From contig CAWAIF010000003.1 of assembly GCA_963782055.1 (NCBI GenBank), positions 6,656,001 to 6,720,000 of the forward strand: a DNA stretch of 64,000 bases, in the 5' to 3' direction. Shown one piece after another: positions 20,413 to 28,359 of the stretch (the first letter of the stretch is position 1; each line of letters starts with the position of its first letter). Position numbers and translations under genes: made by a program. The notes beneath the pieces were generated by a model, which had not been told where the DNA came from, did no database searches, and was given only the letters and a program-made list of their open reading frames with translations. Source of the DNA: an uncultured delta proteobacterium (GTDB lineage Bacteria > Myxococcota_A > Polyangia > Polyangiales > Polyangiaceae).

Positions 20413-20430
20413 AGAGAGAGAGAGAGAGAG
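20413..20430. repeat. (AG)9 microsatellite at the left edge of the island
   Basis: agagagagagagagagag immediately after the LysM stop codon. Confidence 0.9.
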
Positions 20431-20437
20431 GAGGGAT

Positions 20438-20626
20438 GCCCCTCCTCGCGTGTGCTCGGGCCCATGCTCGCTCGCACGCGCGCCGATCGATGGGTGCAGA
20501 GTGCACGCGCTCCGGCACGCGCGCGAGCTTGCGCGTGGGCCCTGCGCGCACGCGTCCTCCCCACGGTGTCGCGCTCCGCGCGCCACACGGGGAGGAGGGT
20601 GCGCCGCGCGGGGCGGACCTCGGCGC
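20438..20626 (+). repeat. Left copy of the 189-bp inverted repeat
   Basis: Collinear blocks shared with the reverse complement of 28171-28359, e.g. ctccggcacgc, gccctgcgcg, tgtcgcgctccgcgcgcca, cggacctcggcgc. Confidence 0.9.
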
Positions 20627-20675
20627 AGGGAACCGGGCGCGAGCGCGAAGCGCGGGCGCGAGGGCGGGCGGCTGG

Positions 20676-20717
20676 CGATCGGCGACGTTGCCGAAAGATC
20701 GGCGACGTCGCCGATCG
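20676..20717. repeat. Double 16-bp palindrome element, copy 1
   Basis: cgaTCGGCGACGTTGCCGA-aaga-TCGGCGACGTCGCCGAtcg; near-identical to 27017-27066 in inverted orientation. Confidence 0.9.
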
Positions 20718-20720
20718 GCG

Positions 20721-21407
20721 TCACTCGACGGGGACGCGCGCCTTGGCCAGCGAGCGCAGCACGTCACCGAAGAGGCGCACGGGGATGCGGCCGATCGTGA
20801 CGTGGCCACCGGCGTAGTGAACGGTAACCTCCTTCGCCGACGCAGGGACGTGCTTGACGATCTCCGTCACGACAGGGCTGCGCTTCGCCCCGGTCGCGCC
20901 CGCCTTGCGCACCTTCTTCGTCGCGTCCCGGAGCTGCGCCACGGTCGCGTCGGCGAAGGGCACCGTCCCGGCGCCCCTTGGGATCCGGAGCTTGCCGAAG
21001 TCCACGGGGATGCGGCCGCTGGCCGGCTTGCCGTGCTTCGCCTCGAGGTAGTCGACGACCGCGTCGATCTTGCTGGCGCCGTAGCGCTTCTCCTCGTCGG
21101 GCGAGGCGTACCTCGCCACGCGCGCGCTCCGCAGCACGTTGCGCACCGTCTCGTTCGGGAGGTACTTCCTCACGAAGTCGCCGACGGTGGAGACCCCGCC
21201 GGCGAGGTAGAGCGGCGGGTTGTGGTCCAGGATCTCGCCGACGGCCTCGTACTTGCGGTCGAAGGCGAACGCGTCCTCGCGGTCGGCGCGCCGGAGGGCC
21301 GAGAGGGACGCAGCCCAGGCCTTCTTGAGGGACTGGTCCACCTTCACGGCGACGGTGCGCTGGACAGGGCGTCGGGGCTTCGCGGCCCTCCTCTTCGTGG
21401 TCGTCAT
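20721..21407 (-). CDS. Basic hypothetical protein, putative DNA-binding (DUF3102-like helical region)
   Basis: Lys/Arg-rich; LYLAGGVSTVGDFVRKYL..VRNVLRSARVAR resembles HTH-type DUF3102 proteins (family assignment tentative). Confidence 0.55.
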   Translation of the reverse strand: MTTTKRRAAKPRRPVQRTVAVKVDQSLKKAWAASLSALRRADREDAFAFDRKYEAVGEILDHNPPLYLAGGVSTVGDFVRKYLPNETVRNVLRSARVARYASPDEEKRYGASKIDAVVDYLEAKHGKPASGRIPVDFGKLRIPRGAGTVPFADATVAQLRDATKKVRKAGATGAKRSPVVTEIVKHVPASAKEVTVHYAGGHVTIGRIPVRLFGDVLRSLAKARVPVE

Positions 21408-21477
21408 GCGGCGGAGTGTCGCGAGAAGCGCCGCTCGGGGCAAGCCCCCGATCGCGCTCACGCCAGCGCTCGCATTC

Positions 21478-21493
21478 GCTGATCGCGATCAGC
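21478..21493. promoter_or_regulatory. Perfect palindrome GCTGATCGCGATCAGC, candidate enhancer (UAS)
   Basis: About 65 bp upstream of a sigma54-like promoter; same core occurs twice at 26066-26111. Confidence 0.55.
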
Positions 21494-21555
21494 CCGCCGC
21501 CGCACCCGGCGACGACAAGCCCGCGAGAACACTGGGCGCCGGAGGCAAGCGCGGC

Positions 21556-21571
21556 TGGCGCCCAGGTTGCA
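21556..21571 (+). promoter_or_regulatory. Sigma54 (-24/-12) promoter candidate
   Basis: TGGCGC-CCAGG-TTGCA fits TGGCAC-N5-TTGCW with exact GG-N10-GC spacing, upstream of ATG 21665. Confidence 0.65.
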
Positions 21572-21664
21572 ACCGGTGCTTGCGGCGCCCTCGCGCCGGC
21601 CCCCCCCCGTGGGGGGGGCAGCCAACCACGCGGCCGATGTCCGCGTGCTTCCCAGGAGCTTGCC

Positions 21665-23030
21665 ATGAAGAACGAACACCAAGCAATGACGACGCCGATT
21701 CGATGCCCGAAGTGTGGAGCCGAGCTCGGGCTCGACGCCGTGATCCGCGCTCGAGATCGCCCGCGACATGGAAGGGCAGCTCGCCGAGCAGCGGAAGGCG
21801 GCCGCAGCCACGGAGGCCGAGCTCCTCCGCCGCCGACGTACGATGGAGGAGAGGGAACAGGAGATGCTCCTCGACATGGAGCGACGTCTCCACGAGAAGA
21901 CCGAGGCGATCCGCGCGCAGGAGGCGAAGGTCGCCGTCGAGCGGGCGCGACGCGACGCGGAACAAGGGATGCAGGAGAAGAACCGCGAGCTGGCCGAGAT
22001 GCAGGCTCGTCTTCGTGGCGCCAATGCCAAGGAGGCCGACCTGCTCCGGCGTGAGCGGCTCGTCATCCAGCGTGAGGAGCAGAACACGCTGGAGGTGGAA
22101 CGCCGGATCGCAGAGGAGATGCAGCGGGTTCGCAAAGAGCAGGCGGAGGCGGCGGAGCAGCGTCAGGCGCGGGAGCGCGACGAGCGCGCGCTCCGTGAGG
22201 AGGAGGACCGGCAGCAGAAGGCGCTCCTCGAGAAGAAGATCGTCGAGCTGGAGCACCAGCTGCGCAACGGCCCGAACCACGTGCATGGGGAAGCGCAGGA
22301 GGTACTGCTCCAGTCCGCACTCGCGCAAGAGTGGCCCCACGACGCCGTGCGCGACGTGCCGAAGGGTGTCGCCGGCGCCGACGTCCTGCATACGGTCCGC
22401 GGTCCCCATGGTGAGGACAGCGGCACGATCGTCTGGGAGAGCAAGCGGACGAAGGAATGGTCCAGGGCGTGGATCAGCAAGGTGCGACGCGATCAGACCG
22501 CGGCTGGCGCGTCGCTCGCCGTCATCGTCACCCGTGCGCTGCCGGCTGGCATCCGTGGCTTCGGGTCCCACGAGGGCGTGTGGGTGTGCGAGTGGCCGTA
22601 CGCGGTGGCGCTCGGTGCGGCGTTGCGCGCGGGCCTCGTGGAGCTGTCTAGTGCCAGGCGCGCGGCGGAAGGTCGGGGAGAGAAGACCCAGGTGATGTAC
22701 GAGTACCTCACCGGGCCTGAGTTCAAGAACAGGGTGGAGGGATTGCTCGATGCGTTCAGGGAGTTGAAACACGACCTCGAGTCGGAACGACAAGCCACCG
22801 AGAGGCGCTGGGCGCGTCAGGATCGCCTGCTCCAGCGCGCCAGCACCAACGTCGTCACGTTCTGTGGGGACATCGACGGCATCTTGGGGGCACGCCTTGT
22901 CGGCAAGCACCGGGACGCGCTCGCCAGCGGTGATGAGGGAACCCCGCGTACCCCGTCGGCGAAGCTCCTCCCCCGCTCGAGCGCAGCGCTCGTGGCACGG
23001 CCGCCGCGACGCCGGAAGCTCGCCCGCTGA
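21665..23030 (+). pseudogene. DUF2130-family coiled-coil / PD-(D/E)XK-like protein with a +1 frameshift near 21752
   Basis: RBS AGGAG and N-terminal IRCPKCG knuckle in one frame; body (HGEAQE, VPKGVAGADV, IVWESKRTKEWS, YEYLTGPEF) in another frame from 21768. Confidence 0.8.
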
Positions 23031-23172
23031 TCGATGACGACGCCCTCGTGAGCCATCATGCCGAGTGACGAACGCGGCCAGCCCAGCCACTCGACGCTGG
23101 AGCTGGCCGCGTGGGCTCGTCTTTGGAGCCGTGGATGTGCATTGCACGCTATCCTTCCCGGTCGTGGATCGC

Positions 23173-24714
23173 ATGGGTTGGGTCGGCGCGACCCTCGAGG
23201 GCAAGTACCGGATCGACGCCCTCGTCGGCGAGGGCGGCTTCGGTTGCGTCTACCGCGCAGTGCACCTGCGGCTCGGCACGCCGGTCGCGGTGAAGTTCCT
23301 GCGGCCGGAGCTCGCGCTCGGCTCCGGCGACGCGGCGAAGTTCCTTCGTCGCTTCGAACGCGAGGCGCGAACGCTCCAGAACCTCTCGCGTGCCACGACG
23401 GGCGTGGTGCAGGCGCACGACTTCGGCGTGGCCACGTCGCCCCGCGGCGAGGAGACGGCATACCTCGTGATGGAATGGCTGGAGGGACACACGCTGTCGG
23501 ACGAGCTCGCCGCGAGACCGCGGCGCTCGCTGACAGACGCCCTCGAGCTGCTGTCACCGGTGCTCGACGCGCTCGCGGTGGCGCACGACATGGGCATCGC
23601 ACACCGCGATCTGAAGCCCGCCAACCTGATGGTGTGCCGTGTCGGCGGCCGCCCCACGGTGAAGGTGCTGGACTTCGGCATCGCGCAGGTCCTGGGGCCG
23701 GAGCACGAGGCCACGTGGATCGGCGTCGGCGGCAACAACACGCGAGTCTTCTCCCTGGCGCACGGCGCGCCGGAGCAGTTCGATCCCGGCCTCGGTCCCA
23801 CGGGCCCGTGGACCGATGTCTACGCGGTGGGCCTCCTGATCCTCCAGCTCGTCGACGGTGAGCACCCCTACGCCGGCGACACGTACGCGGAGCTGCGCGC
23901 CCAGGCGCTCGACCTGGAGCGACGCCCGGCCCTTCGATCCGACCGGAGCATCGACGACGTGATGCGGCGAGTGCTCGCCGTCGACTGGCGGAATCGGCCG
24001 AGGACTGCCGGGGAGCTGCGCGTCGAGCTGACGCGGGGCGAGGGCGAGGACGACCTGGGCCCGCCCACCTCCAGGATGCCGTCCGCGCCGGTCGCCCCGA
24101 CCCCGGCCGCGCCCGTCCCGCCTGCGCTCCTCGTACCTGCTCGCACCTCATCGAGTCACCCGCTCTGGACAATCGTCGCCGTCGGCGCCGGTATTGTTTT
24201 CCTCCTCCTCGCCGTCGGTGGCGCGATGGCCGCCAGGCTGCTCCTTCAAGGTGGGCGAACGACCAGCTCGGCTCGCGATGCCGCGCCGACGAGGGAGACG
24301 CAGGCTCGCGACGTGCTGAAGCAATGGAACGACGCCGAGGACAGGCACGACATCCCCGAACTTGAGTCCATGTACGCGGACCGCGTCCACTTCTACCATG
24401 CAGATCTCACCCCCCAGCAGTGCGGCGACAAGCTGCGAGGCCTGTATCGTGCCTACCCCGGCTTTATTCAGCAGGTCCATTGGGACACGGTCACGGTCGA
24501 GTCGCTGGAGAGCTCCGCCGGGGCGCGCGTGTCGTTCGACAAGACCTACCCGACGAAGACCGGCGTCAGCACCGTGCGCGGGTACCTCGTCCTGGACGGC
24601 GAGATGAGGATCGTCGAGGAGAGCGACGCGAGGACGGATTCTGGTGCTCGATCCGACGGGCTCGAGGGACCACCGTCGGTAGAAGCCGGCGCCACGCAGG
24701 CGGCCATGCGCTAG
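23173..24714 (+). CDS. Membrane Hanks-type Ser/Thr kinase with an extracytoplasmic NTF2-like domain
   Basis: GEGGFG, VAVK, HRDLKPAN, DFG, APEQ, one TM; C-terminal QWNDAEDRHDIPELESMYADRVHFY..RIVEESD is NTF2/SnoaL-like. Confidence 0.9.
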   Translation: MGWVGATLEGKYRIDALVGEGGFGCVYRAVHLRLGTPVAVKFLRPELALGSGDAAKFLRRFEREARTLQNLSRATTGVVQAHDFGVATSPRGEETAYLVMEWLEGHTLSDELAARPRRSLTDALELLSPVLDALAVAHDMGIAHRDLKPANLMVCRVGGRPTVKVLDFGIAQVLGPEHEATWIGVGGNNTRVFSLAHGAPEQFDPGLGPTGPWTDVYAVGLLILQLVDGEHPYAGDTYAELRAQALDLERRPALRSDRSIDDVMRRVLAVDWRNRPRTAGELRVELTRGEGEDDLGPPTSRMPSAPVAPTPAAPVPPALLVPARTSSSHPLWTIVAVGAGIVFLLLAVGGAMAARLLLQGGRTTSSARDAAPTRETQARDVLKQWNDAEDRHDIPELESMYADRVHFYHADLTPQQCGDKLRGLYRAYPGFIQQVHWDTVTVESLESSAGARVSFDKTYPTKTGVSTVRGYLVLDGEMRIVEESDARTDSGARSDGLEGPPSVEAGATQAAMR

Positions 24715-24723
24715 CATGGCCGG

Positions 24724-26070
24724 ATGGGGACCGAGAAGCCTACGGAGGAGCTCACGGGGCCCGCGAAGGGCCCCGCCGGCGCCGGACCTCCGGGACTGAT
24801 CATGGTGTATCCGGAGAAGCGCGCACTCCGGGTGCCCATCGACGAGCCGTGCGGCCGCGACTGGCTCGGTGCCGAGGGCACCAAGGCTTCTCGGCGCCAC
24901 ATCGTCTTCACCAAGGCGGGCAGCCGGCTGACCGTCGAGGATGTCGGCTCGCGTAATGGTACGTGGGTCGACGGAGAGCGGCTCCTCGAGGGGCAACCCG
25001 TTGACCTGGAGAATGGTTCGATCCTGCGCATCGGCGCCGCAGTGCTCGTGTACCGAAGCTCCTTCGGCCTCCCTTACGAACCCGACGCGCCGCTTCAGGT
25101 CCGCGAGGGCCCTTTCCGCGAGCTGATGAGCCCTTTCGGAATGCGTCGCGCCAGAACCGAGATCGATGCCATCGTGTCTCAGTCTCCGACTCCCAGGAGC
25201 ATCCTCATCGAGGGCGAATCGGGCACCGGCAAGGAGTTCATCGCGCGGTATCTCGCCGAGCGCTTGCACCCCGGGTGCCCCTACCTCCCAGTCAACGTCG
25301 CCGCCATCTCGAAGGAGCTGTTCGAAGCGGAGCTGTTCGGGTACGTCCCGGGAGCGTTCTCCGGCGCGCGCGCCGGAGGAAGGAAGGGATACGTCGAGGA
25401 GTGCAACGGCGGCACCCTGTTCCTGGATGAGATCGGAGAGCTTCCCGTCCAGGCGCAGGCGAAGCTGCTCCGCTTCCTCGACAGCGGCGCGTTCCTTCGC
25501 GTGGGCGAGACCAAGGTCCAGACGGCGAACGTGCTCGTCATGGCGGCGACGAATCGAACCCTCGACGACGAGGTCCGCGAGAAGAGGTTCAAGCACGACG
25601 TGCGCGCGCGCTTCCAAGCGTATCTGAGGCTCCCGCCGCTTCGCGACCGACCGGAGGACATCTGGGACATCGCCCGCACCGCGATGCCTGAAACGCCCGC
25701 GGAGGCCCAGGCCGTCGAACGGCTCCTGCTCGAGAGGTGGGGGAAGGGCAACATCCGGGAGCTCCTCAGCACAGTCTCGCGGAGCGTGGCGTCGCAACGG
25801 GCGTCCTTCCCGGGTGTGCCGCCCGCTCTTGCACATTGGGCCGTCGAGCAGACCCTCGCTCTGGCACACGGAGCTGTGGAGCAGACCGCCGATCCAGCAA
25901 GACGCGCGTCCCTGCTCACCCCCGACCGGATCCGACAGGCGCTCGCAGACGCGGGCCAGAACATCACCCACGCCGCCCAACGGCTCTCCACGCCGGGGCA
26001 CACTGTCACCATTGGGACGCTCCGCAGGCGAATGAAAGAGTTCGGGATCAAGCGGGAGAGCTCGGGCTGA
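24724..26070 (+). CDS. FHA-domain sigma54-dependent enhancer-binding protein
   Basis: FHA (SRRH, DVGSRNGTWVDG), Walker A GESGTGKE, GAFSGA, Walker B LFLDEIGE, GNIREL, Fis-like HTH (NITHAAQRL). Confidence 0.92.
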   Translation: MGTEKPTEELTGPAKGPAGAGPPGLIMVYPEKRALRVPIDEPCGRDWLGAEGTKASRRHIVFTKAGSRLTVEDVGSRNGTWVDGERLLEGQPVDLENGSILRIGAAVLVYRSSFGLPYEPDAPLQVREGPFRELMSPFGMRRARTEIDAIVSQSPTPRSILIEGESGTGKEFIARYLAERLHPGCPYLPVNVAAISKELFEAELFGYVPGAFSGARAGGRKGYVEECNGGTLFLDEIGELPVQAQAKLLRFLDSGAFLRVGETKVQTANVLVMAATNRTLDDEVREKRFKHDVRARFQAYLRLPPLRDRPEDIWDIARTAMPETPAEAQAVERLLLERWGKGNIRELLSTVSRSVASQRASFPGVPPALAHWAVEQTLALAHGAVEQTADPARRASLLTPDRIRQALADAGQNITHAAQRLSTPGHTVTIGTLRRRMKEFGIKRESSG

Positions 26071-26111
26071 TCGCGATCGCCAACGCGGGCGGTCTAGCTG
26101 ATCGCGATCGG
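26066..26111. promoter_or_regulatory. Two direct copies of GCTGATCGCGATCG, candidate tandem UAS
   Basis: Copies start at 26066 and 26097, 31 bp apart (about three helical turns). Confidence 0.55.
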
Positions 26112-26175
26112 TGACCACGACCCCGCCCATGACGCAACCTGTCGGAACTCCTCGTCATCGTCCCGTCCGGTCGCG

Positions 26176-26191
26176 TGGCACGCGCCGTGTA
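26176..26191 (+). promoter_or_regulatory. Sigma54-like promoter candidate with an imperfect -12 element
   Basis: TGGCACG-CGCC-GTGTA: consensus -24, GT instead of GC at -12; predicted +1 falls just before ATG 26204. Confidence 0.45.
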
Positions 26192-26203
26192 CTGGGTCGC
26201 GGC

Positions 26204-26500
26204 ATGACCTCGTCAGCCGCTTCCCGTCGCCTCACTCTTCACGACCAGATCCTGCTGGCCCTCCGCGCCGACGACCACGACGCGGCGCGCGTCCTCCTGC
26301 GCCGCATGCTGCTCCTGCTACCGCTCGAGGACTGCCGCGCGCGGGCCGACGTGCTCGTCACGCTCGCCTATGTCGCCATCGAGGGAGGGCGCGCGCAGGA
26401 AGGCCGCGCCATAGCGAACCTTGCCCTCGCGCTCGTTCCCGGCCACGCCCTGGCCGAACGCGAGCTGGAGCGCGCCACCCGCGGCGTGGGCATCCGATGA
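26204..26500 (+). CDS. Small TPR-like helical protein
   Basis: ADVLVTLAYVAIEGGRAQEGRAIANLALALVPGHALA resembles one TPR; ATGA-coupled to the hicA-like gene. Confidence 0.55.
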   Translation: MTSSAASRRLTLHDQILLALRADDHDAARVLLRRMLLLLPLEDCRARADVLVTLAYVAIEGGRAQEGRAIANLALALVPGHALAERELERATRGVGIR

Positions 26501-26973
26501 GCGGCCACGGAGATCCGAGAAGTTGGCGCGAGCTGCGCACCGAGCTCCGGAGCCTGGGCGCGCGCAGCGTGCGAACGAAGGGCTCTCACCAGGCCTGGAG
26601 GTTCGCGGACGGGGAGGTGTTCGTCCTGGTCGTCAACCACCTCTCCGACCCCGTACCCGGAGGCATCCTCGCGGAGTTTCGTCGCCTCAGGCGACGCCGC
26701 CTCGGACCTGCCCGCGAAGAGCCACCACCAGCCAGACACGCGAGAGCACAGTGCTCGGGCGGTCGATCCGGCAAGAAAGGAGAAGTGATCATGAGCAAGG
26801 GAAGCAGCGGCGGCAGAGGAGGTCGCGGTGGGCCGAAGGGCGCCGGTGGCCCGAAGGGCGCCGGTGGCCCGAAGGGCGGCAGCGGTCCCAAGGGCGGCCA
26901 GGCCCACGGCGGCAACTACCCGAGCACCACGGGAAACGCCTCCGGAGGCGGGCGAGGAAACACGCCGAGGTAG
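26497..26973 (+). CDS. HicA-like mRNA interferase domain, reading through into a Gly-rich tail
   Basis: RELRTELRSLGARSVRTKGSHQAWR..VVNH..PVPGGILAEF matches the HicA dsRBD pattern with the GSH catalytic His. Confidence 0.7.
   Translation: MSGHGDPRSWRELRTELRSLGARSVRTKGSHQAWRFADGEVFVLVVNHLSDPVPGGILAEFRRLRRRRLGPAREEPPPARHARAQCSGGRSGKKGEVIMSKGSSGGRGGRGGPKGAGGPKGAGGPKGGSGPKGGQAHGGNYPSTTGNASGGGRGNTPR
26791..26973 (+). CDS. 60-aa Gly-rich basic peptide with its own RBS
   Basis: AAAGGAG upstream of ATG 26791; four 18-bp units encoding GGPKGA-like repeats (26827-26898); ends NYPSTTGNASGGGRGNTPR. Confidence 0.55.
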   Translation: MSKGSSGGRGGRGGPKGAGGPKGAGGPKGGSGPKGGQAHGGNYPSTTGNASGGGRGNTPR

Positions 26974-27016: not shown

Positions 27017-27066
27017 ACCGGGATCGGCAACGTCGCCGATTTTTCGGCAACGTTGCCGATCCCGGT
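27017..27066. repeat. Double 16-bp palindrome element, copy 2 (long hairpin)
   Basis: accgggaTCGGCAACGTCGCCGA-tttt-TCGGCAACGTTGCCGAtcccggt. Confidence 0.9.
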
Positions 27067-27169: not shown

Positions 27170-27480
27170 ATGACTGCCTAGGCGGTCCAGGCGCGAGCAG
27201 AGCCGATCGTCGTCTTCCGCAGCGTCAATCGTGACGGCGAGACGTACGCGCTCGAGCCGCGCTCGTTGGATCGGCTTCGGAAGGAGCTCGGCGCTGCCGT
27301 CCACGCTCGGCCTCGCATCTTCATCGCGCACGAGACGCGCGCAGACTACGAGCACATCCATGCCGCCATCGTCGAGCAGATCATCCAGTTGCTGACCGGC
27401 GTCACGGAGGAGCGGCTCCGCCCTCTCGGGGGCGTCATTTTCGGGATCCTGTGACCGAGCGGGATCTCCCACGGGCGTAG
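27170..27480 (+). pseudogene. Small hypothetical gene with an in-frame TAG at codon 4 and a probable 3' frameshift
   Basis: ATG ACT GCC TAG then open frame AVQARAEPIVVFRS...; adding one T at attttcggg gives VIFRDPVTERDLPRA*. Confidence 0.5.
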
Positions 27481-28058
27481 CTGGTGCTGCCGGTGGCGCC
27501 GCACCGAAGCCTCGATCGGCTTGTCCAACCGCACCCGGACCGCCGGCGATGGAGGGCAGCTGGTCGGGCCATTGATCCAGGTAGGCCGTGAGCGATGCCT
27601 CCCAGCCCGTGGCCTCGTGTTCGTTCAGGACCACCTCGAGTCCAAGGGCGTCGGTCTTCGCAGCATCGTCGGCGACCGGCCGCCTGCCCGGTCCCTCACG
27701 CGTCTTGCCGGCTTCGACGTAGGCATCGCGAAGCTTCGAGAGCTCCACCCGCGGCACGATCAAGAAGCGCCACTTCTCCCCGTGGCGCACGACCAGCATG
27801 AAGAAGAGCTCAATCGGCTGCGGTGCAGCGTAGCTGAGCCCGTGAAAGCGTGAACTTCGCCTTCACGCTGCCGCCGTTCGCCTCGCCTTCGGCAGTCTTC
27901 ACCTGCAGGCGCCAGGTCGTCTTGTCGTTGTCATCGATCACGAAGACGTCGTCGCCGACGTCGACCACGGGGACGGCGACATTCCACCCGCGGAGAAGGA
28001 GCTCCGACATCGCAAAGTACTCGCCTGCTCGTCCGAAGTGCGTCTTCTTGTCCGCCAT
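27480..28058 (-). pseudogene. PD-(D/E)XK endonuclease with a +1 frameshift near 27826; 3' end uncertain
   Basis: GRAGEYFAMSELLLRGWNVAVPVVDVGDD..RLQVK; continues in another frame as APQPIELFFMLVVRHGEKWRFLIVP. Confidence 0.72.
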
Positions 28059-28170
28059 CCCCGGCCGCATCCTCGCACGCGGGGGAGGCTGCGTGCACGA
28101 CATTGCGCGTGCGCGGTCACCGCCGGCAGCACCCGCGCTCCCTCACGCGCCCGTGCTCGCGCTCCCTCGC

Positions 28171-28359
28171 GCGCCGAGGTCCGTCCCCGTGCGGCGCACC
28201 AGCCTCCCCGATGGCGCGCGGAGCGCGACATCCGGGGGAGGGGCGCCACGCGCAGGGCTCGCGCGCAAGCCTTCGTGCGTGCCGGAGGCCTTGCATCATG
28301 CACACATCGACGGCACGCGCGAAGGCGAGCACGAGCCCGAGCATGGCGCCCGGAGGGGC
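28171..28359 (-). repeat. Right copy of the 189-bp inverted repeat
   Basis: Reverse complement aligns collinearly to 20438-20626 and abuts the ubiB-like stop codon. Confidence 0.9.

Follow-up and report, generated by a model that had tools for sequence, protein, structure and literature searches.

Sigma54 enhancer-binding proteins with an FHA domain are reportedly known from Myxococcus xanthus, where Jelsbak, Givskov and Kaiser (2005) are said to have tied them to fruiting-body development and proposed their coupling to Ser/Thr kinases. Here, we have analyzed a locus of this general kind in a 64,000-nucleotide stretch of DNA (the window) from an uncultured delta proteobacterium of the family Polyangiaceae (assembly GCA_963782055.1, contig CAWAIF010000003.1, positions 6,656,001 to 6,720,000), in which paired palindromes precede two sigma54-type promoters. 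One promoter lies ahead of genes for a DUF2130 protein, a membrane Ser/Thr kinase and an activator composed of FHA, AAA+ and helix-turn-helix (HTH) domains, and the other ahead of genes for a mini-TPR protein, a HicA-like toxin domain and a Gly-rich peptide. The reading that we favor, and regard as fairly probable on comparative sequence evidence, is that the paired GATCGCGATC palindrome is the enhancer of one activator subfamily, through which an envelope signal would be relayed by the membrane kinase and the activator to swappable envelope, peptide and defence genes. Comparison among relatives lends good support to the regulatory anatomy, and the defence role appears plausible but partial.

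The M. xanthus proteins share with the window's activator the FHA-AAA+-HTH architecture (with a sub-threshold HTH match in the window's protein) and the proposed Ser/Thr kinase coupling, whereas the present locus differs in its distinct subfamily, paired palindrome and phased promoters, as well as in its viperin, CBASS, nuclease and toxin targets. The Psp system is also governed by a sigma54 activator, is triggered at the envelope and can be induced by phage, and a coiled-coil protein is encoded by the first gene in one clade here; however, PspF, which lacks an FHA domain, is regulated through the binding of PspA and not by a kinase. Membership of the Psp family was rejected for the window's activator, which possesses an FHA domain and reaches 154 bits where TIGR02974 requires 443, and no pspA-family match was obtained for the coiled-coil protein. 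The animal interferon response also combines a surface receptor kinase, phosphorylation, a palindromic element and viperin, CMPK2 and cGAS, and viperin-kinase fusions occur here; yet the comparison is an analogy only, as the regulators are not homologous.

CapH-CapP and WYL-domain regulators work through derepression, triggered inside the cell by DNA damage or nucleic acids, whereas the regulator considered here belongs to the sigma54 activators and is encoded next to a membrane kinase that carries an outer domain. Described as regulators of defence islands (10.1101/2022.04.27.489752, PMC9122601, PMC13228613), they resemble the present system in being portable and in serving varied defence operons, including CBASS. 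With regard to HicA, 14 context classes have been distinguished, two of which place hicA beside viperin without the classic bicistron (PMC10865869); the HicA domain is common to these contexts and the window, and no hicA that is coupled to a TPR gene, lacks hicB and stands behind a sigma54 enhancer appears in the available passages and section headings of that paper, in which TPR, sigma and Myxococc do not occur. The timing of bacterial antiviral genes has been called largely open in the available text of 10.64898/2025.12.14.694197, where neither sigma nor viperin occurs. The sigma54-linked defence covered in the accessible part of PMC12316311 names only transporters, and FHA is absent from the available text of PMC3162934 and PMC7694542. 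No description of the motif, the subfamily or the regulon was found in the literature, most subscription papers and supplements lying outside the coverage of the search.

The regulators of bacterial antiviral genes that we found described are intracellular, and the present locus offers a concrete and testable route from a receptor kinase to transcription, with the DNA site, the promoter geometry and natural specificity variants in hand. Within the literature searched, this would be the first binding site and regulon assigned to an FHA-type sigma54 activator. If the defence reading is true, a bacterial viperin would be inducible downstream of a receptor kinase, as in animals, and the motif would become a route to new defence systems.

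The paired palindrome

The original prediction rested on a 13-mer, GCTGATCGCGATC, which has exact matches at 21478(+), 21481(-), 26066(+) and 26097(+); the two copies 31 base pairs (bp) apart at 26066 and 26097 were confirmed, as was the lack of any further exact copy in the 64-kb window. What had been called a perfect palindrome is so as a 16-mer (21478..21493, core 21481-21490), the 13-mer not being palindromic by itself. This site had also been taken to stand alone; the site is exact, but a partner, GATCGCGCTC, with one mismatch (21450..21459, 31 bp ahead of the core at 21481), had been overlooked, so that the first site is a pair as well. The element consists of two GATCGCGATC palindromes 31 bp apart, to which no strand applies, and the second pair (26069..26109) has exact cores at 26069-26078 and 26100-26109, the former overlapping the stop codon of the activator gene.

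A count of the motif across the whole genome had been proposed as a check. In the 7.58-Mb genome, the 13-mer is indeed not frequent, with five strand matches (four sites) against 1.6-2.4 expected, but the count alone is unremarkable, the 10-mer core reaching 96 strand matches against 65-106 expected. Among the 48 core sites of the genome, only three 31-bp pairs with at most one mismatch are found, all of them at the two loci of the activator subfamily; the third pair, at C3:4709184, lies ahead of a paralogous lipoprotein-kinase-activator operon. Thus, it is pairing and position, not motif frequency, that exceed chance.

Sigma54-type promoters

Each pair is followed by a sigma54-type -24/-12 box on the + strand: TGGCGCCCAGGTTGCA at 21556..21571, 65 bp past the proximal core, with a start predicted from the consensus near 21582, and TGGCACGCGCCGTGTA at 26176..26191, 66 bp past the proximal core, with a start predicted near 26202. 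The earlier statement that each site lies about 65 bp ahead of a box is thus correct for the proximal cores and not for the distal site of the second pair, which is 97 bp from its box. The rpoN gene is present in the genome. In the accessible part of a study of Desulfovibrio, most sigma54 promoters lie within 100 nucleotides (nt) of the activator site (PMC4641369).

Boxes were scored as matches to 12 positions of the sigma54 consensus, with a threshold of at least 9. Such a box was found on one side of 33 of 35 site pairs, compared to 306 of 3000 random positions, and site pairs within coding sequence never had a box score above 7. For 31 pairs at activator loci, site-to-box distances fall at 33-34, 44-46, 54-56 and 65-66 bp, with outliers of 93 and 98 bp; they rise in steps of one helical turn (34/45/55/65 bp) and give a phase coherence of 0.865 at 10.5 bp, the value on the opposite side being 0.012. 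A pattern scan of metagenome and viral contigs returned 48 loci, including near-duplicates of one another or of the genomes, of which 26 have a box, with a coherence of 0.83. No box was found at two viral-contig pattern matches. Four metagenome or viral contigs (L291, L313, L323, L328) share an identical context around the site pair and have no sigma54 box. Core arrays with 29-bp and 11-bp periods lie between divergent sigma54 boxes in two genomes (L244:1963-2117 in G233 and L016:11014-11172 in G034), and may be described as expanded bidirectional enhancers.

An ATG lies 11-13 nt past the box in 19 of 106 distinct promoters, compared to 1, 4 and 2 in control windows, and at this distance it coincides with the predicted +1. 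Promoter 2 of the window belongs to this group, with its ATG 12 nt past the box, the modal distance in the family, and its mRNA is predicted from this spacing to be nearly leaderless. Taken across relatives, box, phasing and ATG distance indicate that the sigma54-like promoters, as originally proposed, are likely real.

The activator subfamily and its association with the motif

The activator (24724..26070, + strand) begins with an N-terminal arm containing Thr. Its AAA+ domain scores 158.7 bits against PF00158 with Walker A and B, arginine finger and sensor II aligned, and the first Arg of its RxDxxxR motif is replaced by Lys. Its loop reads GAFSGA, which is counted among the GAFTGA variants expected to keep activity in the available text of PMC4641369. 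The HTH_8 match reaches 14.9 bits, under the cut-off of 22; relative to the family, this region has an insertion and a divergent recognition helix, with Ile where the family has Arg in the motif G[VI]xRxxLxR of most subfamily members.

A search of 41 genomes yielded seven other proteins at E <1e-65, set apart from the bulk of activators, which were combined with the window's protein to build a subfamily profile. With four candidates scored per genome, subfamily matches at E <=1e-95 came from 58 of the order's 401 genomes (52 at <=1e-110), with 51 in the window's family. All 64 loci at <=1e-110, seeds included, were then compared with 80 loci of other sigma54 activators, only 25 of which exceed 62% GC. 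An exact core together with a box (at least 9/12) within 4 kb of the gene was present in 44/64 subfamily loci and 0/80 controls; without the eight profile-seeding loci the figure is 37/56, and for controls above 62% GC it is 0/25. A site pair with at most one mismatch occurs in 30/64 subfamily loci, and 31 bp accounts for 22 of the 40 exact site-to-site distances up to 60 bp. Among the matches listed, pairs with a 31-32-bp period were seen in 18/52 genomes with the subfamily compared to 2/349 without it, while a reversed control pattern had zero matches in the 401 genomes. The motif accompanies the activator on either side, amid changing neighbours.

In two genomes, variant sites are found beside variant helices. 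A pair of GCTCGCGAGC sites with a 32-bp spacing precedes viperin in G452, 42 bp from the box (L348:8037-8078), and a pair of GTCCGCGGAC sites, also spaced by 32 bp, lies 46 bp from the box in G219 (L203); the activators of both genomes have Tyr in the recognition helix. These two cases are suggestive of natural specificity variants, and a search for variant palindromes in the 20 motif-less loci returned one case only. Comparison (44/64 versus 0/80, pairing and phasing) thus supports the proposal that the motif serves this activator as its enhancer, and on these grounds we consider the link between enhancer, activator and promoter very likely.

The membrane kinase and the FHA domain

The receptor-type Ser/Thr kinase gene (23173..24714, + strand) encodes a kinase domain (PF00069, 114 bits; the translation contains VAVK, HRDLKPAN and DFG), followed by a hydrophobic segment and then a C-terminal outer domain. 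This outer domain, a weak SnoaL match in Pfam, is modelled with a confident NTF2-like fold (predicted local distance difference test score 89.8), and its best Foldseek matches are NTF2-like. A kinase domain occurs within 2.5 kb in 42 of 49 subfamily loci with full flanks compared to 15% of random segments of the genome, which carries 166 kinase domains; the membrane kinase originally noted beside the activator is therefore a constant neighbour. Most neighbouring kinases have a hydrophobic segment and a C-terminal domain of 145-290 residues that differs by clade.

The FHA domain of the window's activator scores 48.9 bits against PF00498 and keeps the phospho-Thr-binding Gly-Arg and Ser-x-x-His. 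Across the subfamily, both the phospho-Thr-binding FHA residues and a Thr in the N-terminal arm are conserved. Considering this conservation and the neighbouring kinase, control of the activator by the kinase seems likely, and the N-terminal Thr arm may be the phospho-site by analogy with GarA and OdhI.

Targets of the enhancer in relatives

In related genomes, the commonest first genes behind the enhancer encode a coiled-coil membrane protein, lipoproteins and two small peptides, one of which is the Gly-rich peptide of the window; defence genes form a substantial minority. The coiled-coil protein (335-345 amino acids, with an N-terminal Thr/Ser motif) belongs to no known family and is co-transcribed with the activator in one clade (L017:3389-4414; L015, L160-L174), and it could be a PspA-like feedback partner or an FHA ligand. 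Neither Atlas nor NCBIfam provided a function for it. The other small peptides form a family marked by an NPNNP motif and without a Pfam or NCBIfam match, whose genes come first behind enhancer promoters in several genera (L209:12740-12907, L014:7172-7360, L018:9729-9899 and L219 near 7990).

The defence genes anticipated for this circuit do occur behind the enhancer in relatives, in the form of viperin, CBASS and nucleases. Prokaryotic viperin genes number 23, spread over 21 of the 301 genomes of the family, and one of these genes has no upstream DNA. An exact core lies 45-86 bp before a box in 10 of the other 22, across four genera and three viperin clades, although three of these ten revealed the link initially and six come from one genus. 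Several enhancer-linked viperins are far from the activator gene, and two of the ten, both under the enhancer, are fused to a C-terminal nucleotide-kinase-like domain (L274, L275). CBASS operons stand at motif promoters in G315 (cyclase, CHAT-SAVED, cyclase, E1-E2, JAB) and G241 (SAVED-peptidase, cyclase, McrBC). PADLOC matches in relatives comprise pVip and the CBASS cyclase, effector, E1-E2 and JAB. In addition, a target DUF2130 gene adjoins JetB in G034, and a Mokosh-like helicase is the target in one metagenome contig. A low-GC enhancer operon of three genomes encodes an NAD epimerase, a glycosyltransferase-radical SAM fusion, a WG-repeat protein, a histidine phosphatase and a TPR protein, with or without a methyltransferase (L227:658-6865, L237:1-6641, L240:636-7502), and is a candidate nucleoside-analogue defence system.

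The TPR-hicA-peptide operon

The second promoter of the window precedes a mini-TPR gene (26204..26500, + strand; weak Pfam TPR match), which overlaps the next gene by ATGA. That gene (26497..26790, +) encodes a HicA-like RNase toxin domain at residues 10-60, with 28.1-30 bits against PF07927 (cut-off 27); its GSH motif, including the catalytic His, is kept and aligns with a HicA-family chain at E 0.011. As it lacks a separate stop codon, its frame continues directly through the Gly-rich peptide (26791..26973, +); the peptide ends in a conserved motif, and its gene has a ribosome-binding site of its own. The original assignments of the DUF2130, kinase, FHA-AAA+-HTH activator, TPR and HicA genes were all confirmed by Pfam, SnoaL and TPR weakly and the HTH with a score under its cut-off.

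The window's hicA is the only one in the genome. No match to hicB (PF15919, PF05534) was found in this 97% complete genome, and the gene upstream of hicA is the TPR gene. The mini-TPR family has eight members; relatives 34-40% identical to the window's protein head motif promoters in G001 and G400, so that a mini-TPR gene occupies this position in three genomes, each time with an ATGA overlap with the next gene. Here the latter encodes HicA; in G001 it encodes a GHKL ATPase, accompanied by two Endonuc_Holl genes, and in G400 it is a PD-(D/E)XK-like gene. This variety speaks against the TPR protein being an antitoxin specific to HicA. In G241, G308, G390 and one metagenome contig, a relative of the Gly-rich peptide comes first behind a motif promoter. 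As a general marker of the regulon, this peptide was rejected, the motif lying upstream of 5 of 17 matches, four of which had seeded the alignment.

Proposed mechanism

The evidence at the sequence level comprises the co-location of motif, box, activator and kinase, the 31-bp pairing, the helical phasing and the identity of the downstream genes. In the proposed mechanism, the outer NTF2-like domain would bind an envelope ligand and the kinase would autophosphorylate. A phospho-threonine on the kinase or on the N-terminal Thr arm of the activator would then engage the FHA domain and allow the AAA+ ring to assemble, and two dimers of the activator, seated three helical turns from each other, would contact sigma54 polymerase on the same face of the DNA. 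Promoter 1 would provide positive feedback on the DUF2130-kinase-activator operon as well as a nuclease-like protein, whereas promoter 2 would give a nearly leaderless mRNA for the TPR protein, a translationally coupled HicA without neutralisation by HicB, and the peptide. Sigma54 promoters are silent without an activator, which would make them a safe way to keep an antitoxin-less toxin; transcription itself would be the safety catch on HicA. The control exerted by this switch would extend to viperin and CBASS in related genomes.

For the regulon as a whole, a purpose in defence is about as likely as not. A bolder version, which we regard as tentative and on balance unlikely in its entirety, is an interferon-like circuit of Polyangiaceae in which the receptor kinase senses phage or a warning from neighbours and, through the FHA-sigma54 activator and one palindromic element, switches on a set of antiviral genes, namely those for viperin (with nucleotide kinase), CBASS, nucleases and antitoxin-free HicA. 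In such a circuit, the small motif-driven peptides could be an amplifying signal, and the enhancer would also mark further candidate defence systems, such as the operon of epimerase, glycosyltransferase/radical SAM, WG-repeat and phosphatase genes.

Alternative explanations

Several observations count against the favored reading, in part or as a whole, and some of them give substance to other explanations. No motif was found in 20 of the 64 subfamily loci, the genomes compared are kin so that counts overstate independence, and box 2 is non-canonical in having T in place of C at -12. For the HicA part, the predicted conserved synteny of kinase, activator, TPR and hicA failed, there being no hicA match in the 63 other subfamily loci. 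The TPR-hicA pair was seen in this genome only, and no relatives of the window's HicA were found in the databases; the HicA circuit is one strain's cargo.

One alternative, somewhat unlikely, is that the window's copy is not self-contained, its activator decaying or respecified and its promoters either silent or driven in trans from C3:4.71 Mb, where a paralogous module of kinase and activator carries the same motif. In the paralogous activator the recognition helix matches the consensus, and an exact pair is present at its locus. The activator of the window sits on a long branch, carries an insertion and has an altered helix (Ile for Arg), so that the paralog may serve the window's promoters; the 'self-contained' circuit of the original prediction is therefore doubtful. 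Furthermore, three island genes are broken by frameshifts or a stop in the assembly (DUF2130, the PD-(D/E)XK gene and an open reading frame at 27171), and this accumulation of breaks within a single island hints at decay or at indels in the assembly. On the other hand, neither the kinase nor the activator frame is broken and their catalytic motifs are retained, the activators of G001 and G034 have exact sites despite non-consensus helices, and an extra base at 27437, inside one of the broken reading frames, in one read-derived contig (depth 2.7, weak; the DNA run covers 15/30 bins) points to assembly indels, which are possible for DUF2130 and hicA as well. This explanation can be reconciled with the favored one, in which the paired palindrome is the subfamily's enhancer.

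The main rival, rather unlikely in our judgement, is a general envelope-stress or cell-contact regulon in which defence genes are passengers brought in via insertion hot spots and the relevant signal is something other than phage. Most targets are envelope proteins or small peptides, neither toxins nor defence genes, with the coiled-coil membrane protein and lipoproteins prominent among first genes, and the outer domains of the kinases vary between clades. No exact core precedes 12 of the 22 viperins. A reverse test over the 20 genomes that have a SMODS match linked CBASS to the enhancer in 1, with a weak single site as one further case, and as a general target CBASS was accordingly judged mostly negative; one genome, G000, has neither a viperin nor a SMODS match. 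However, viperins of three clades have the enhancer and box directly ahead of their start, several of them far from the activator, and this intact spacing argues for selection on regulated expression.

Binding of the palindrome by another protein, such as a repressor or nucleoid protein, or its origin as a mobile-DNA repeat with only incidental proximity to the activator, appears improbable. Three genomes (G306, G331, G345) have motif promoters and no subfamily activator (best E 1e-88 to 1e-82), and one locus holds five copies at a 29-bp period and another several at 11 bp, which would suit such a binder; but the motif tracks the activator whatever its neighbours and on either side, the loci have no other gene in common, the sites are in helical phase with the sigma54 box, and variant sites stand beside variant helices. 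Chance matches in a 72% GC genome, which the unenriched 10-mer core and the only about twofold excess of the 13-mer might suggest, can be dismissed as having a negligible probability in view of the 0/80 control loci, the empty reversed-pattern search, and the fixed spacing and phasing.

Other features of the locus

The DUF2130 gene (21665..23030, + strand; Pfam E 3e-44) encodes a zinc ribbon, a coiled coil and a PD-(D/E)XK-type domain, and DUF2130 is listed as a PD-(D/E)XK family in the available part of PMC3424549. It is frameshifted near 21750 in the assembly, and a paralog at C3:2.245 Mb has the N-terminus in frame. A divergent hypothetical gene (20721..21461, - strand) belongs to a large Myxococcota family whose Atlas clusters are unnamed (one 13% DUF3102) and which has a paralog at C3:888474. 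Neither Atlas nor NCBIfam gave it a function, and no Pfam, NCBIfam or PADLOC match, and no match in the 63 other activator loci, was obtained; it is probably an island neighbour and not part of the circuit. At the right end of the island lies a split PD-(D/E)XK nuclease gene (27531..28061, - strand; PDDEXK_5 E 2e-5), which continues in another frame. The open reading frame at 27171-27454 has an in-frame TAG and a likely 1-bp assembly deletion at 27437. When six window proteins were searched with the PADLOC 2023 models, none of the families matched.

Two copies of an intergenic repeat of about 190 bp flank the island at 20420-20635 (+) and 28171-28359 (-). The repeat has 54 copies genome-wide, often right after gene ends and sometimes as inverted pairs 1-8 kb apart, and resembles miniature inverted-repeat transposable elements or repetitive extragenic palindromes. 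A transposon with terminal inverted repeats was rejected, since the flanking inverted copies are part of this 54-copy repeat. No transposase was detected among the scanned island genes and no empty site was found, the flanking genes being non-adjacent in five congeners. Paired 16-bp palindromes of a different kind, TCGGCRACGTYGCCGA, with a 20-bp period, bracket the module at 20677-20716 and 27022-27061. Similar pairs occur at four other sites in the genome and, in those viewed, follow a repeated gene end.

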